From IMG/VR virus record IMGVR_UViG_3300021197_001350, positions 1 through 64,000 of that record: 64,000 bases of DNA; one strand, given 5' to 3'. The notes under the pieces are model-generated. The model was given only the letters and a program-made list of their open reading frames with translations. It ran no database searches and had not been told where the DNA came from. Positions 46,493 to 51,032 of the stretch are shown one piece after another; within the stretch, counting starts at the first letter, position 1; every line of letters begins with the position of its first letter. The DNA comes from a virus. The translations under genes were made by a program, and so were the position numbers.

Positions 46493-46753
46493 ATGGCACA
46501 AAAAAAAGATATGGTTCAAGTTTCCGTATCAATCAGGCGAGACAAACATGACTTCCTAAAAGCATGGTCTGATGAGCGAGACGAAAGTATAGCGACAATC
46601 TGCAGAGGCTGGATATATACAGGCATTGCAGACCTACAGGATGCATTAGGGCATTTTAATGTTGGGCCTCAGCAGACAGCTGAAGAGCCAATGGAATTGG
46701 AAATACCTGAAGGAGATATCCCTGATGAAGGAAGCGTGGAACAAACTCAGTAG
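46493..46753 (+). CDS. Ribbon-helix-helix (Arc/CopG-like) regulator with acidic tail
   Basis: MVQVSVSIRRDKHDFLKAWSDERDESIATICRGWI fits the strand-helix-helix pattern. Confidence 0.75.
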   Translation: MAQKKDMVQVSVSIRRDKHDFLKAWSDERDESIATICRGWIYTGIADLQDALGHFNVGPQQTAEEPMELEIPEGDIPDEGSVEQTQ

Positions 46754-47351
46754 TGTTGACTGCTCTAAGCATATAGAAAAGAAAGGAAACCTTTCTTATT
46801 TGTCTTGGGCTTGGGCTTGGTCACAACTATGCGACAACTATCCTGACTCAACTTTTGAGTTTGAAAAGACAGATACAGGCTCTGAGTTTTGGCCAATGCC
46901 TGATGGATCAGGAGAGGTAAGATGCTCACTCACCGTGTCAGGTATTACAAGAACCTGCTGGCTTCCAGTGATGGACTACAAGAATAAAGCCATCCCCAAC
47001 CCTAACGCAAGAGATGTCAATGATGCTAAAATGCGTTGTTTAGTTAAGGCGATAGCGTTGTTTGGATTGGGTCTATACATCTATGCAGGTGAGGATATTC
47101 CAAATAATAAACCATCGTCCGATGTTAAAACAACAACACCACTGCCCAAGGAGGAGCATGATGACTTCATGCTTGAGTCTGAACCTCAGGCTAATTGGAA
47201 GAAGGGTGTTGTTCCTATTGGGAAAAGCCAAGGTAAGACCCTTGGAGACCTGAATAAAGAAACGATGGAAAAGATCTGGGAGCATAGGGAAATGGTAAAA
47301 GATTACCCTGACTTCATGGGTAGCCTTCAGGAGTGGAGGAAGTCTCTGTGA
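46725..47351 (+). CDS. Sak / DUF1071 (Rad52-like) single-strand annealing protein
   Basis: KKGNLSYLSWAWAW, LPVMDYKNKAI and RCLVKAIALFGLGLYIYAGED signatures; start revised to ATG 46725. Confidence 0.9.
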   Translation: MKEAWNKLSSVDCSKHIEKKGNLSYLSWAWAWSQLCDNYPDSTFEFEKTDTGSEFWPMPDGSGEVRCSLTVSGITRTCWLPVMDYKNKAIPNPNARDVNDAKMRCLVKAIALFGLGLYIYAGEDIPNNKPSSDVKTTTPLPKEEHDDFMLESEPQANWKKGVVPIGKSQGKTLGDLNKETMEKIWEHREMVKDYPDFMGSLQEWRKSL

Positions 47352-47545
47352 AGATTGAATGGGCTGATATATTTATCGTACTATTCTGCACCGCATTGAT
47401 GGTACTTGTCATGTCCTTCATATTCGGTTGCTCTTCAACTTGTAGGAAAAAGGTCTGTTGCCCCGAACAGGGGCATGGGCCTTGTCCTATATGCACTAAT
47501 ATAATATACGACTCAGGAGATATAATCTATGGACGAAAGAGGTAA
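47348..47545 (+). CDS. Small Cys-rich putative lipoprotein
   Basis: Hydrophobic stretch ending IFG-C; GTGA overlap with upstream stop. Confidence 0.5.
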   Translation: MKIEWADIFIVLFCTALMVLVMSFIFGCSSTCRKKVCCPEQGHGPCPICTNIIYDSGDIIYGRKR

Positions 47546-48599
47546 CGCACCTTCAGCTTCAGGTATAGGCAGGCTACAGCTATGCCCTGGCAGTTGGAAT
47601 CTAGAAAAACAGTTTCCTGAGGTTGAATCAGCAGAGGCTACCGAGGGTACGATTAGGCATGAACTTATTGCTGATGAAGAACTAAAGGTTGATAGCCTTG
47701 AGCCTGAGCGTAGGTTTGTTGTTTCTAAAGCAAGGAGCCTTACGGAAAAAGCGCGCAAAGAAGTTGGCTTTACTGAATCCTCAAAGATACATAAGGAGGA
47801 AAGGTATTGGTTACTGAATGAAGCAGGGGCTAGGGTACTGAGTGGTAAGTTCGATTATGCTGAGTATGAAGGCAAGACTGGTCTGATTATAGATTACAAG
47901 ACATTAGGCGGTTACCAAATAAATGCATATGACAACCTACAGCTTAGAGCCTATGCAGTCCTGTTTGCTGAGAAGCATGACCTTGATTGTGTTTATGTTT
48001 CACTAGTGCAACCACTGGGTATTGAAGCTTACTCGATAGATATGCTTAATAAGCAGGATCTAAGAAAAGCACGGGTAAATATACTTGATATACTAAAGGA
48101 TGCCCTGCATCCCAATGCACCAAGAAGACCGCACCCTAATGCCTGTAAGTATTGCAAAGCATTGGTACACTGCCCTGAAGTCAGGAATGTTATGGACACC
48201 ATAATAGAAATCGACTTAGACAAGCTTGAGGAACCCTATGAGATTGAAAGGTTAATAGGCGTTGCTCAGATAGCATCCAAGTGGTCAGACAGGTTGACTA
48301 AGTGGGTCAAGGAAAGACTCAAGGAGGATGATGAGTATCTCCCTAACTATAAGCTAAGGAAGACAGGCTCAGTTAAATCCATAAAGGATATGCCTAAAGC
48401 GATAAAGATCATTATGGATAAGCTAGGTATAAAAGATAAAGACCTTAGTAAGTACCTTAAGATAACCCTGTCCGATATTACAAAGCTATACGAGGAGAAG
48501 ACAGGAGATAAGAAGGGATCACGCAAGGCGGTAGAGGAGATGCTATCAGAAGTTATTGTTGCCAAAGAGAAGTCTCCCTCTTTACAAAAGTCTAAGTGA
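47529..48599 (+). CDS. PD-(D/E)xK Cas4-like exonuclease (DUF2800-like)
   Basis: SAS..R..LCPGS, GTIRHE, GKFD, IIDYKT, QLRAYA, CKYCKA..CP. Confidence 0.88.
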   Translation: MDERGNAPSASGIGRLQLCPGSWNLEKQFPEVESAEATEGTIRHELIADEELKVDSLEPERRFVVSKARSLTEKARKEVGFTESSKIHKEERYWLLNEAGARVLSGKFDYAEYEGKTGLIIDYKTLGGYQINAYDNLQLRAYAVLFAEKHDLDCVYVSLVQPLGIEAYSIDMLNKQDLRKARVNILDILKDALHPNAPRRPHPNACKYCKALVHCPEVRNVMDTIIEIDLDKLEEPYEIERLIGVAQIASKWSDRLTKWVKERLKEDDEYLPNYKLRKTGSVKSIKDMPKAIKIIMDKLGIKDKDLSKYLKITLSDITKLYEEKTGDKKGSRKAVEEMLSEVIVAKEKSPSLQKSK

Positions 48600-48952
48600 A
48601 TGACAAAGAGGAAGGAACCAAACCATCTGCTAGACAAAGGTCAAGTGCTTACCCTAACGCTAAAGGACTACAGAGTCCCAAGCCTCAACGTAGTGTTAGG
48701 GTCAAACCGATGGGCAAGGGTGAAGGCGAAGAAGGAATGCGGGCTGAGTATTCTATCTGCATTGAAAGCACTAGAGTCAACCTACTCGACCCAGACAACT
48801 ACTACATTAAAGATCTCATCGATCAACTCCGCTACGCTCGCATTATCCCTGAAGATGATCCGCAAACAGTCGAAATCGAAATCATCCCCAAAAAGGTCGC
48901 GGGCTACAAACAAGAAGAAACGAAAGTAAAAATAAAAAGAAATGGGAACTAA
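48596..48952 (+). CDS. rusA: RusA-like Holliday junction resolvase, catalytic (C-terminal) half
   Basis: LLDPDNYYIKDLIDQLRYARIIPEDD matches the RusA DxDN..K...D.L...DD catalytic motif; its own N-terminus is not RusA-like. Confidence 0.75.
   Translation: MNDKEEGTKPSARQRSSAYPNAKGLQSPKPQRSVRVKPMGKGEGEEGMRAEYSICIESTRVNLLDPDNYYIKDLIDQLRYARIIPEDDPQTVEIEIIPKKVAGYKQEETKVKIKRNGN
48600..48929 (+). CDS. Overlapping-frame ORF carrying the RusA-like N-terminal half
   Basis: LTLTLKDYRVPSLNVVLGSNRWARVKAKKE matches the RusA N-terminal strand-PSxN-helix; ATG directly after upstream stop. Confidence 0.65.
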   Translation: MTKRKEPNHLLDKGQVLTLTLKDYRVPSLNVVLGSNRWARVKAKKECGLSILSALKALESTYSTQTTTTLKISSINSATLALSLKMIRKQSKSKSSPKRSRATNKKKRK

Positions 48953-49682
48953 AGGAAAAAGACCAGCAATGTTATTCTATCCCCGTGATTGGTTAGTAGA
49001 TCCAAATCTAAACTCATGCAGTCTATGCGCGCAAGGGTTATGGGTTAGGATGCTATGCTATATGTGGGAGTCCGAAAAAAGAGGCTACCTAATGGTAGGA
49101 AATAAAGCACTTCATGCAGAACAAATAGTAAGGTTAGTAGGTGCAGGCAACCCTGAAAATGAAGTACTTTATTGGCTGTCAGAACTAAAAGATGCAGGGG
49201 TTTATTCAGTCACCGATGAAGGGGTTATTTATTCCCGTAGGATGGTTGATGATGAAGGAGATACGAAAACATCTAAAGCTAAGAATAAAGTAAAGTCTTC
49301 CTCGCGTACGCGCACGCGGGCGGAAGATGAAGATGAATATGTAAATAAAAAGTTTAAGACTAAGAGGGCTGTTGAAGATGCCCTTCAGTCAGAGAGGATT
49401 TCCTATGATCACTATCCAAGCTTTAAAATTTTTTGGGATATCTATCCTCCAAGGAATGGAGTGAGGCAGAACAAGAAAGAGGCTTTTGTCACATGGGTAT
49501 TCCAAGCGTTGGAAGATAAAGGAAATTTAATTATTGACTCAGTTAAGAAATTAAAAGATACAGAGAGTTGGATTAAGGAGAATGGCAGATTTGTCCCAAT
49601 GGCTACAACCTTTCTAAATGGAAACAGATGGGAAGATGAAGTCGAAGAGTTTGCCCCCTCCGCGTGGGGAATGAATGCGTAA
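48942..49682 (+). CDS. Phage replication initiator
   Basis: N-terminal RPAMLFYPRDW..CSLCAQGLW; C-terminal FWDIYP..KKEAF..FVPMATTFLNGNRWEDE; directly before DnaB. Confidence 0.85.
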   Translation: MGTKGKRPAMLFYPRDWLVDPNLNSCSLCAQGLWVRMLCYMWESEKRGYLMVGNKALHAEQIVRLVGAGNPENEVLYWLSELKDAGVYSVTDEGVIYSRRMVDDEGDTKTSKAKNKVKSSSRTRTRAEDEDEYVNKKFKTKRAVEDALQSERISYDHYPSFKIFWDIYPPRNGVRQNKKEAFVTWVFQALEDKGNLIIDSVKKLKDTESWIKENGRFVPMATTFLNGNRWEDEVEEFAPSAWGMNA

Positions 49683-49742: not shown

Positions 49743-51032
49743 ATGATTGGATCTAATTTAAGCGAGAATGATTATGAAAGCGGAGTCCTCAGCTCATGCC
49801 TGAGAGACATACAATGGCCCACGGCTTATAGCCGAGCTTGTGACATAATATCCCCTGAGCATTTTGCAGATGCTAACAAGGGTAAAGTGTTTGAGGTGAT
49901 GGGTAAGTTAACCGAGCCACCTGATGAATTTGTATTAGCTAATGAATCAGGAGTAGACATGATAGACATAATGGGTTGGTGCGAAAGGACAGAGACATCA
50001 ACTTATGTAGTCACCTTTGCCGAAGGAGTTATGAAGTGCTGGTCTAAAAGACAGGCAGAGCATATCGCTAGGGAAGTAATGGATAAGGTTTCCAACCAAG
50101 AGGATCCCAACGAGATCCTCTCTAACGCAAGTAAAAGAATTACGGATGCCCTTGGGTCTCATAGCAATGAGATTAAAGAAGTGCATGATGGCATAGATGA
50201 AACCCTACAGAATTGTTATGACCTTGATGAGGGTAAGGTGGAGCCAGGAATAAACACAGGGTTGCCTGACTTAGATAAGGTCTTAGGTGGTTTCAAGGTG
50301 GGAGAGTTTGCAACTATAGCCGCCCGACCCTCACATGGTAAGACGGCATTGGCATTATCCATAGCGGCTAATATAGCATCCACTGGCAAGAAGGTTTTAT
50401 TCTGTAGCCTTGAGATGACAACTGAACAGCTGAGAAAAAGATTAATGCACGCTGAGGCACGAGTACCTATTATCAATAGACCCAATCACTACAATGGTGA
50501 AGACAGGCATAAGCTTGAAGATGCGGTTGGTAGGATTAAGGGTTGGAGCCTAAAGGTGGATCAGACTTGTGGAGTCACAGTACCTTATCTCCTTTCAAAA
50601 GCAATGGCTGAGAAAACACGGAACGGACTTGATATACTATTCATTGATTACATTGGTATAATGAATGGGCCAGGCAAGGATATATACGAGAGGGTATCAG
50701 GGATATCCCGTGGCATTCAGCAAATAGCAAAGAAGGTTGAGATACCTGTGGTTGCATTATCCCAACAGAACAGGGATTCCGAAAAGGACAACAATGCAAA
50801 GATGAGTCACCTTAGAGACTCAGGTAGTGTAGAGCAGGATGCCGATCAGGTGATCATGCTTAGGCGTTCTAAGGATATGGGCGATAAGCCTTTTGAACCC
50901 GTAGAGATAATGGAAGTGACCATCGCCAAGAATCGGAATGGTTGCACAGGTAAAATACCCTTGACATTTTGTAGAAGCTTTGCACGATATGAAAGCACAG
51001 CGAAAGAAAACAGCGAACCCAGATTAAACTAA
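49743..51032 (+). CDS. dnaB: Replicative DNA helicase DnaB
   Basis: AARPSHGKT, SLEM, FIDYI, ALSQQNR, LRDSGSVEQDAD, IAKNRNG. Confidence 0.97.
   Translation: MIGSNLSENDYESGVLSSCLRDIQWPTAYSRACDIISPEHFADANKGKVFEVMGKLTEPPDEFVLANESGVDMIDIMGWCERTETSTYVVTFAEGVMKCWSKRQAEHIAREVMDKVSNQEDPNEILSNASKRITDALGSHSNEIKEVHDGIDETLQNCYDLDEGKVEPGINTGLPDLDKVLGGFKVGEFATIAARPSHGKTALALSIAANIASTGKKVLFCSLEMTTEQLRKRLMHAEARVPIINRPNHYNGEDRHKLEDAVGRIKGWSLKVDQTCGVTVPYLLSKAMAEKTRNGLDILFIDYIGIMNGPGKDIYERVSGISRGIQQIAKKVEIPVVALSQQNRDSEKDNNAKMSHLRDSGSVEQDADQVIMLRRSKDMGDKPFEPVEIMEVTIAKNRNGCTGKIPLTFCRSFARYESTAKENSEPRLN

Follow-up and report, generated by a model that had tools for sequence, protein, structure and literature searches.

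RusA of E. coli DLP12 (PF05866; PDB 1q8r, 2h8c and 2h8e; PHROG 34/1682) is a single chain of 120 amino acids read from one frame, in which a strand, a PSxN-type loop, a helix, a strand, a D-x-D-N motif, a lysine, a helix, an acidic pair and two further strands follow one another. The phage locus described herein presents the same order of elements. Unlike RusA, however, it contains no open reading frame (ORF), and no polypeptide, that holds the whole fold of a four-stranded mixed sheet and two helices; the frame of the first strand and helix (frame A) is offset by +1 from that of the catalytic part (frame B). Two relatives, L020 (Ga0209536_100004274, 125 amino acids) and L101 (IMGVR_UViG_3300000116_000048, 130 amino acids), differ from this locus in being single-frame throughout. 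The N-terminus of L020, TPSLN..HW..K.K, aligns to frame A, while its residues 58-120, with LLDPDNLY..K..D, align to frame B. PSLN and DPDN are 165 nt apart in L020 versus 110 nt here, and the missing 55 nt approximate the dual-coded length.

The lambda Rz/Rz1 spanin genes nest one ORF inside a second, in a different frame, and their products bind as one functional unit. That two frames of the same DNA are both kept by selection holds for the present locus as well. In contrast, Rz and Rz1 are unrelated proteins, Rz1 being short and embedded, whereas the frames described here overlap nearly end to end, appear to be halves of one ancestral domain and share a core that forms structure in both. In dnaX (tau/gamma) and the phage tail chaperone genes G/GT, programmed -1 frameshifting likewise draws on two frames of a locus. 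As in these genes, the second frame here is -1 relative to the first; unlike them, the present locus lacks a slippery heptamer at its junction, its zero frame runs on past that point, and its -1 frame has a start codon of its own from which it is open. Our literature search found no paper describing a dual-frame RusA. In the available passages of the PRFect paper, RusA/RuvC genes appear among the 'false positives' of a frameshift predictor (PMC10885494); reference 40, the sole RuvC citation in its 35-42 block, concerns the E. coli ruvC gene product, and these passages contain nothing on a dual-frame layout.

Two overlapping frames behind an exonuclease gene

The window, by which we mean the whole stretch of DNA that was analysed, comprises 64,000 nt of the marine phage record IMGVR_UViG_3300021197_001350 (Table 1). 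A recombination exonuclease, a Sak annealing protein and replication genes adjoin the locus. Positions 48594-48602 read AAG TGA ATG, where TGA at 48597-48599 is the stop codon of the exonuclease gene. The first-pass annotation, which was made from the sequence alone, had placed two starts on these letters (GTG 48596 and ATG 48600) and had followed both frames for ~110 codons. The exact letters and ORF coordinates agree with the former, and the latter is borne out by counts of 118 open codons for frame B and 109 for frame A, with the third frame of the window closed over the overlap. The dual-frame layout is thus real: both frames are open, and both starts lie on AAG-TGA-ATG. Gene callers report frame B alone, labelling it hypothetical and assigning it no Pfam domain; databases hold almost nothing of the frame A protein, for which two clusters were found.

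Table 1. Features of the dual-frame locus (positions in the window).
Feature	Coordinates	Strand	Description
Upstream exonuclease gene, DUF2800 / PD-(D/E)XK	47529..48599	+	Pfam PF10926 E 1.3e-26, PF12705 E 1.1e-11; PHROG 69 exonuclease
Dual start AAG-TGA-ATG	48594..48602	+	GTG 48596 (frame B) overlaps the stop, ATG 48600 (frame A) abuts it; 4 nt apart
Frame B ORF, 118 aa	48596..48952	+	Low-complexity linker (aa 1-47) leading into strand 2, helix 2 and strands 3-4; includes the catalytic motif; ends at TAA 48950-48952
Frame B linker (~aa 1-44)	48596..48727	+	-1-frame shadow of the frame A module; low complexity; predicted disordered
Frame A ORF, 109 aa	48600..48929	+	Strand 1, PSLN, helix 1, then basic S/T/K/R tail; stop TAA 48927-48929
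Frame A strand 1 (Q15-L21) and RVPSLN loop	48642..48689	+	PSLN 48678-48689; hhalign against L020 N-terminus; pairing in complex model
Frame A helix 1 (R37-L58)	48708..48773	+	Invariant columns W38, K42, K44, I51 L52 A54 L55
Dual-coded core, ~35 nt	48744..48781	+	Read in frame A, the last part of helix 1; read in frame B, strand 2
Frame B strand 2 (Y52-V61)	48749..48778	+	AF2 strand 52-60; hhalign to L020 residues 58-120
Frame A tail (aa 61-109)	48780..48926	+	Shadow of the catalytic module as read in the +1 frame; its last part strongly basic
Frame B catalytic motif	48788..48856	+	D65-P-D67-N68 (48788-48799), K72 (48809-48811), E86-D87 (48851-48856)
Downstream replication-initiation gene	48942..49682	+	PHROG 270 E 3.6e-16; ATG 13 nt past the frame A stop, within the frame B end

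Along each frame the elements read in the order that had been annotated. Frame A begins with a RusA-type N-terminus (strand, PSLN, basic helix) and continues into an S/T/K/R-rich tail, the supposed filler, while frame B has its low-complexity start first, followed by strand 2, DPDN, K72 and E86-D87. The SPKPQR of the frame B linker is a shadow of VPSLN in frame A, as is the family-wide 'PEPQ' ahead of strand 2 of PSLN. An ATG internal to frame B, at 48737, is invariant.

Conservation of the layout and selection on both frames

In approximately 76 related loci, comprising every one fetched, the front and catalytic parts lie in different frames of the same ~350 bases. Both ORFs are open in 12/12 close loci, where frame B is 54-96% identical by tblastn and nucleotide identity is 71-97%, and in 65/65 distinct distant viral loci, for which tblastn with the A4 query gave 38-53% identity in frame B; that query shares 37% identity with frame B of the window. 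Each of the 65 distant loci carries the +1-frame ORF A with the same motifs and 87-198 open codons; the third frame in the relatives has 1-76 open codons only. The distance from the P of PSxN to the D of DxDN is exactly 110 nt in 56 of these 65, as it is in the window. The first-pass annotation had named single-frame homologues, or stops in one frame, as grounds for rejecting its reading, and neither was met by tBLASTn among the close and distant loci. The catalytic module is matched by 1366 clusters (50% identity clustering) at E<=0.001. Searches by blastn and tblastn against 50,697 phage records gave no match. Six candidate relatives, L014-L019, were discarded as false positives in which the word LLDPDNYY occurs within an unrelated soil-bacterial protein.

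The paired starts recur as well. GTGAATG is also found in L001, L008 and L010, and the clade of L068/L069/L091/L096 has [GT]TG-A-[AG]TG behind a single GGGAGG SD. Several relatives carry paired starts 4-9 nt apart behind an SD instead of on a stop codon. A survey of SD-like motifs (14/65 A starts and 27/65 B starts, versus 0.14 per random start-like triplet) was noisy, and from it we used the clear L068-type clade alone.

We then considered the bases that serve both frames, where the end of the frame A helix (C47-A57, 48738-48770) and the frame B strand (Y52-R60, 48749-48775) share nucleotides. Alternative-frame protein identity was compared with a null of synonymous resampling in which the protein of one frame was held. 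With the B protein held, frame A identity in the core was 0.402 against an expected 0.216 (1.9-fold, z=16), and with the A protein held, frame B identity was 0.464 against an expected 0.183 (2.5-fold, z=26). The ratio in the core flanks was just 1.16-1.36-fold, with z of 4-9; conservation of the frame A tail exceeds the null by no more than this, though the tail is stop-free against a chance of P ~0.001. Changes in the core that are synonymous in A (I51, L52 as CTR/TTR, A54 and L55) are interleaved with those synonymous in B (A50, S58 as AGC/TCG, and R60 as AGR/CGC). Frame A has a pN/pS of 0.06-0.3 up to ~48770, and frame B one of ~0.3 from ~48783. Since the ~35-nt core is selected in both frames, no single frameshift junction can join both conserved peptides in one chain. 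The annotated argument that these shared nucleotides bar a whole fold by -1 fusion or by a single-base error therefore holds, as the core is conserved in both frames beyond their mutual constraint.

Stop avoidance was assessed by synonymous resampling of each locus, holding the protein of the other frame and the codon usage of the phage itself. The probability that frame B is open by chance over A codons 8-46 was P=0.001-0.023 per locus, and that of frame A over its tail was P=0.001-0.002; despite these low values, both frames are open in 13/13 close loci.

Relationship to RusA

Neither frame matches the Pfam RusA family PF05866 at E<=1, nor does the single-frame relative L020, and a six-frame search of the 74-kb phage record with Pfam RusA found nothing. 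Only 5 of 98 frame B family members match it, weakly, with a best E of 0.019. Directly compared with PHROG 34 (RusA-like), frame B scores weakly, at E 0.0087 and 0.0033. The frame B module aligns to L020 residues 58-120 with an hhalign E of 7.9e-12, and L020 matches PHROG 34 over its whole length with E 4.5e-8. This transitive link from frame B through L020 gives, at the level of sequence profiles, solid support for homology to PHROG 34. The catalytic residues D65, D67, K72 and D87 are invariant in alignments of 9, 32 and 98 members, and in the largest of these so are N68, D76 and R79. These four correspond in order to D70, D72, K76 and D91 of E. coli RusA, of which the three aspartates and the lysine are the reported catalytic residues (PMC1636454). 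The correspondence was drawn from motif order and a structural alignment to 1q8r residues 52-118, without a printed residue-level alignment.

The AF2 model of frame B has pLDDT 82-94 at amino acids 50-118 and 45-61 at amino acids 1-49, although the model built with a 9-row alignment was poor (pLDDT 54). The former model has three strands and a single helix; strand 1 and helix 1 belong to frame A. Its alignment to 1q8r covers only residues 52-118, so that RusA residues 1-51 would have to come from another source. Foldseek matched it to 1q8r_B with probability 0.85, TM 0.43/0.46 and rmsd 2.9 over 70 columns, but with E 0.41; VIA-align gave Z 4.3, rmsd 3.3 and 25% identity over 65 aligned residues of 1q8r, tied with 4-OT/MIF-like folds. 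By identity, 1q8r was the best of the structural matches to chain B. Searches of the PDB with sequence profiles from the A and B alignments returned nothing meaningful. In the ESM Atlas, frame B retrieved only unnamed viral clusters; rank 27, with a score of 0.82, went to a cluster bearing PF05866, which we treat as no more than a lead.

For frame A, the evidence is shorter. Its module aligns modestly to the L020 N-terminus (hhalign E 3.5e-5, probability 72%, 28 columns). The P, S and N of the PSLN loop are invariant across 27 diverse frame A modules, and the family consensus of helix 1 is HW.R.K.K...FLSAL.A. A PHROG scan of the 27 modules gave zero matches, and an ESM Atlas search with frame A found nothing. 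The annotated RusA identity is thus upheld as remote homology, resting on PHROG 34 via a single-frame relative, the catalytic motif and a weak fold match to 1q8r, and is without a match at Pfam level.

The two-chain reading and its alternatives

The two modules were modelled as a complex, which scored 0.62 against 0.01 for the best control; the mark applied to this score is reached by 58/80 solved complexes and 2/110 mismatched pairs. At least 92% of contacts are the same between runs, and partner pLDDT is at least 71. Strand 1 of frame A pairs with the last strand of B in a RusA-like manner and A residues 43-55 contact B, such that the modules are placed together as in RusA, a comparison that the first-pass annotation had proposed. 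The pass may in part reflect memory of solved RusA structures on the part of the predictor, the chains being halves of a known fold. The C-terminal module of chain B, which is confidently predicted alone, might also need no chain A.

We consider it probable that the locus encodes a RusA-like enzyme built from two chains out of two frames, although translation of both and their assembly have not been shown. The first-pass annotation had inferred such a two-chain resolvase, and the comparative and modelling tests that it named came out in favour of that reading. Ribosomes ending the exonuclease gene at TGA 48597 would restart at one of two codons, ATG 48600 or GTG 48596, the latter overlapping the stop. 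Frame A would give chain A, with strand 1, the PSLN loop, helix 1 and then a basic tail, while frame B would give chain B, with a disordered linker, strand 2, helix 2 and strands 3 and 4, carrying the putative metal-binding residues D65, D67 and D87, plus K72. Strand 1 of chain A would join the sheet beside the last chain B strand, with helix 1 packing on strand 2 and helix 2, and A and B would together rebuild the four-stranded sheet and two helices of the RusA monomer. AB would presumably dimerize to (AB)2 and cut four-way junctions in the Sak/exonuclease recombination-dependent replication of the phage. In a possible variant, chain B would begin at ATG 48737, which leaves the open upstream part of frame B unexplained. 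It is inferred that both frames are translated, that the chains assemble into an active enzyme and that the paired starts control their ratio. The frame A tail and the frame B linker are both kept open, and the two-chain reading assigns neither a role.

Alternatively, the frames could encode two proteins that do not form one enzyme, with B alone a trimmed RusA-like nuclease bearing a flexible N-terminus, A an overprinted accessory such as a small basic DNA binder, and the RusA likeness of A convergent or vestigial. The confident prediction of B residues 50-118 without chain A would fit this, as would the N-terminal motifs of their own that many distant frame B proteins conserve, and the homology of frame A to the RusA N-terminus is short, with no Atlas support. 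We nevertheless think it improbable, because the strand, PSLN and HW..K.K helix of frame A have the order and spacing of the single-frame L020 and L101, and frame B misses exactly those elements. The complex model, moreover, passes its controls with a RusA-like pairing of strands 1 and 4, and B alone folds poorly when its alignment is shallow.

A single fused chain could instead arise by recoding, in which translation starts at ATG 48600 and moves by -1 to frame B close to the invariant GAAGAAGGAATG (48728-48739); the product would be a compact RusA whose helix 1 is shortened. The step from A to B is indeed a -1 shift, the commonest recoding event in phages, and the AAG-rich stretch with its 12 invariant bases is located where fusion would occur; A_AAG is present in 26/65 relatives. 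However, the annotated absence of an X-XXY-YYZ slippery site is upheld, as frame A has no such heptamer over 48600-48886 and the sole one, C_CCA_AAA at 48887, lies well beyond the junction. Only 4/65 relatives have a heptamer, at differing positions. Fusion would require neither upstream B nor downstream A to be open, yet both are open in every locus against P ~0.001-0.02, and it would leave the second half of helix 1 (FLSAL.A) untranslated, yet this is conserved 1.9-fold over what frame B imposes. We therefore hold a fused chain to be quite unlikely. Transcriptional slippage was rejected for want of a homopolymer run in the junction (none of at least 5 before 48890), two successive frameshifts were considered and rejected, and so was a backward ribosomal hop re-reading the core, which lacks a supporting signal and for which we know of no precedent.

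Finally, the locus could be an ordinary single-frame rusA that is broken or that carries an indel from sequencing or assembly. This has next to no chance of being correct and is refuted in practice by the comparative sequence data. A 3n+1-base deletion would look alike, and single-frame L020 does have 55 nt more between PSLN and DPDN, but the same frame relation and 110-nt spacing extend across the related loci fetched, which come from independent metagenomes. Assemblies made independently of one another (Tara, JGI, ENA) repeat the layout, and purifying selection and stop avoidance act on both frames.

On balance, though with slightly less assurance than for the locus itself, we favour the view that the whole widespread resolvase family is obligately two-chain, made from one ~350-nt stretch that includes ~35 nt coding conserved elements in both frames, with the ratio set by the starts. 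If the two-chain reading is true, one small enzyme domain would be split over two almost fully overlapping frames, and a stretch of DNA that codes a helix when read in one frame and the adjoining strand when read in the other would have been kept over deep divergence in many uncultured phages. The locus would then provide a test case for how much structural information one DNA segment can hold in two frames, for the origin of such an arrangement from a single-frame gene, and for the setting of subunit ratios by paired start codons. Because frame B is all that gene callers annotate, and they enter it as hypothetical with no Pfam domain, a common phage recombination function is being overlooked.

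The overlapping frames and their relationship to RusA

On the source record, a linear IMG/VR-type virus contig of 74,397 bases with a CheckV completeness of 85, the two overlapping open reading frames (ORFs), frame A and frame B, are surrounded by a recombination and replication module in which every gene lies on the plus strand. The first-pass annotation had described a RusA resolvase split between these frames, both coupled to one stop codon, and its account of the locus was correct in every detail that could be checked. On evidence that is entirely comparative or predicted, we consider it probable that the best reading is one of two coupled chains: the two starts, tied to termination of the exonuclease gene, would yield chains A and B, which would then assemble into a RusA-like (AB)2 resolvase.

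Features of the locus, in window positions
Feature	Position	Strand	Remarks
Sak single-strand annealing protein	46659..47351	+	PF06378, E 2e-46
DUF2800/PD-(D/E)XK exonuclease	47529..48599	+	ends AAG TGA at 48594-48599
Frame B ORF, 118 aa	48596..48952	+	start GTG 48596, stop 48950-48952
Frame A ORF, 109 aa	48600..48929	+	start ATG 48600, stop 48927-48929
Replication-initiation protein	48942..49682	+	PHROG 270; start ATG 48942
DnaB helicase	49743..51032	+	

Upstream, an 86-aa ORF (46493..46753) overlaps the start of the listed Sak ORF by 95 nt in another frame. As the Sak Pfam match begins only at residue 26 of the listed ORF, the true start may lie further downstream.

Neither frame matched a Pfam family, and frame B matched PHROG 34 (RusA-like resolvase) weakly (E 0.003-0.009). 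A single-frame relative of 125 aa, L020, matches PHROG 34 over its full length (E 4.5e-8); its residues 58-120 align with the frame B module (hhalign E 7.9e-12) and its residues 4-32 with a profile built from 27 frame A modules (E 3.5e-5, probability 72%). The PSLN-to-DPDN distance in L020 is 165 nt, 55 nt longer than in the window; L101 is a second single-frame relative. All 98 members share frame B residues D65, D67, N68, K72, D76, R79 and D87 without variation, which fits the order in which RusA carries its metal ligands D70, D72 and D91 and its catalytic K76 (PMC1636454). An AF2 model of frame B, built from a 98-row alignment, has pLDDT values of 82-94 for residues 50-118 (strand, helix, strand, strand) and 45-61 for residues 1-49. 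Foldseek with this model returned nothing at E<=0.001; the best match by probability (0.85), TM (0.43/0.46) and rmsd (2.9 Å over 70 columns) was RusA 1q8r_B, at E 0.41, and VIA-align superposed model residues 49-117 on residues 52-118 of 1q8r_A (Z 4.3, rmsd 3.3, 65 aligned, 25% identity), tied with other small beta-alpha-beta folds. Given the links through PHROG 34 and L020, the invariant residues and the fold matches, the RusA assignment is remote but coherent, and chain B covers no more of RusA than its C-terminal two thirds. When the whole 74,397-base record was searched in six frames, nothing matched Pfam RusA (PF05866); judged by this family alone, other resolvase families not having been searched, the record holds no RusA-type resolvase candidate apart from the dual-frame locus.

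The two frames might also serve unrelated functions, with frame B alone as the nuclease. Because the B module is predicted confidently without A and the homology of frame A is short, this reading is not excluded, and we regard it as possible if unlikely.

Layout of the frames across the family

Scoring a profile of the frame B module against 1.84 billion representatives gave 1366 proteins at E<=0.001. In almost every one of the 149 best matches an in-frame PSxN is missing and a 'PEPQ..VRHEPL..GE.G' stretch precedes strand 2; CCG AGC CTC AAC, which encodes PSLN, gives 'PEPQ' in the -1 frame. With an alignment of distant frame B proteins we retrieved 80 viral loci, 65 of them distinct, and in each of the 65 an ORF A, open for 87-198 codons in the +1 frame, comprises, in order, a strand, [LV]PS[LW]N, HW.R.K.K...FLSAL.A and a basic tail. 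In most loci no more than about 30 nt separate its stop from that of frame B, and the third frame is open for just 1-76 codons. From the P of PSxN to the D of DxDN the distance is exactly 110 nt in 56 of the 65, as in the window (48678 to 48788), and 110+12, 110-3 or 110+54 nt in the remainder.

Many distant frame B proteins (P0025, P0027, P0031, P0038, P0064, P0074, P0115, P0120, P0147 and others from the profile search; loci L040, L048, L059) conserve the N-terminal motifs E[LF]...FPNAS..F...N or WT..EL..YE.R, which are absent from the window's copy; they precede the linker, and their position relative to the frame A start is not settled. Soil metagenome contigs L014-L019, retrieved through a peptide pattern, were rejected as relatives: they encode an unrelated ~250-aa protein that contains LLDPDNYY and has a hydrophobic signal-like stretch near its N-terminus.

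GTG 48596 and ATG 48600 lie 4 nt apart at the end of the exonuclease gene. The same GTGAATG is present in the close loci L001, L008 and L010, and in other relatives the B start is 4-9 nt upstream of the A start. At about 1170-1180 of the distant loci L068, L069, L091 and L096, one GGGAGG Shine-Dalgarno is followed by [GT]TG-A-[AG]TG, two starts in two frames with the window's 4-nt spacing, though these loci are only distantly related.

Dual coding and selection on both frames

Using 35 representatives below 72% nucleotide identity and 400 replicates of synonymous resampling, we compared conservation of the second frame with that imposed by the first frame's protein alone. In the core (about 48744-48781), other-frame identity was 0.402 against an expected 0.216 with frame B as primary (ratio 1.87, z 16) and 0.464 against 0.183 with frame A as primary (ratio 2.54, z 26). 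The flanks (A tail, B linker) gave ratios of 1.16-1.36 (z 4-9) with either frame primary, which set the level of background due to codon bias and common ancestry. The dual coding of the core is genuine: the same 21 bases write the family consensus FLSALrA in frame A and lVRITS in frame B. Both peptides cannot enter one chain through a single frameshift junction, which bears out the central argument of the first-pass annotation that one frameshift cannot yield the whole fold.

Sliding Nei-Gojobori counts in 30-nt windows gave a frame A pN/pS of 0.06-0.3 in windows starting up to 48747 (reaching 48776) and a frame B pN/pS of about 0.3 in windows starting from 48783, and the two selection signals interleave at 48738-48778. 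Frame A Ile51, Leu52 (CTR/TTR), Ala54 and Leu55 are preserved through A-synonymous changes that alter frame B; frame B Ala50, Ser58 (AGC/TCG, three base changes) and Arg60 (AGR/CGC, two) are preserved through changes that alter frame A.

At 48681-48737, third-position variation in frame A is 0.44 bits versus 1.15 bits upstream, 13 loci show no variation in GTGGTGTTAGGGT or GAAGAAGGAATG, and frame B reads VRVK and EEGM. Some additional constraint is at work before frame B becomes structured; an internal start at ATG 48737 and an RNA feature are two candidates.

A recoding event that joins frames A and B in one chain by frameshift is improbable. No slippery heptamer lies at the junction, as had been claimed (the sole X_XXY_YYZ in frame A is at 48887), nor is a slippery site present in 61 of the 65 relatives, and such a fusion would leave unexplained both the conserved second half of helix 1 and the end-to-end openness of the two frames.

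When the C-terminus of frame B was used as query in a word-indexed protein search, 8 related clusters (118-130 aa) were found, each called in frame B. DNA of 12 close relatives (L001-L013) was obtained from Tara, JGI and ENA marine metagenomes and IMG/VR, with frame B matches 54-96% identical to the query alignment and nucleotide identities to the window of 71-97%; in all 12, frames A and B are open for ~110 codons and many stops interrupt the third frame. When synonymous codons were resampled with the phage's own codon usage, the probability that no stop interrupts frame B across A codons 8-46 was P=0.001-0.023 with the frame A protein fixed, and that frame A stays open over the 48-49-codon tail was P=0.001-0.002 with the frame B protein fixed, and so the end-to-end openness of both frames is itself under selection. 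Stops in one frame or single-frame homologues had been named as refuting the split; with both frames open in the 12 close and 65 distinct distant loci, the comparative data effectively rule out a pseudogene or an indel in an ordinary gene.

Predicted fit of the two proposed chains and its implications

The reading of two coupled chains was also modelled, as the first-pass annotation had proposed. A complex predicted from modules of 74 aa for frame B (11 rows) and 62 aa for frame A (10 rows) scored 0.62, against 0.01 for the best control. Of 80 solved complexes, 58 reach that mark, as do 2 of 110 mismatched pairs. Contacts agreed between runs to at least 92%, and partner pLDDT was at least 71. 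In the model, A strand 1 (residues 15-21) pairs with the final B strand, and A residues 24-32 and 43-55 contact B strand 2 and helix 2. Since the two modules together make up a fold whose structure has been solved in RusA, the pass may reflect this likeness; the model shows the modules to be compatible with a RusA monomer, but not that they bind.

The kind of enzyme is known already. We found no paper describing a dual-frame RusA-like layout, and to our knowledge an architecture in which a single domain is divided into halves between two frames of almost the same extent, with a dual-coded structured core, is undescribed. The closest earlier example of overlapping genes with products that make up a single unit is lambda Rz/Rz1, and the same is proposed, without binding data, for frames A and B. 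One possibility, by inference only, is that the open basic tail of frame A and the linker of frame B keep ribosomes on the message up to the coupled replication-gene start at 48942.
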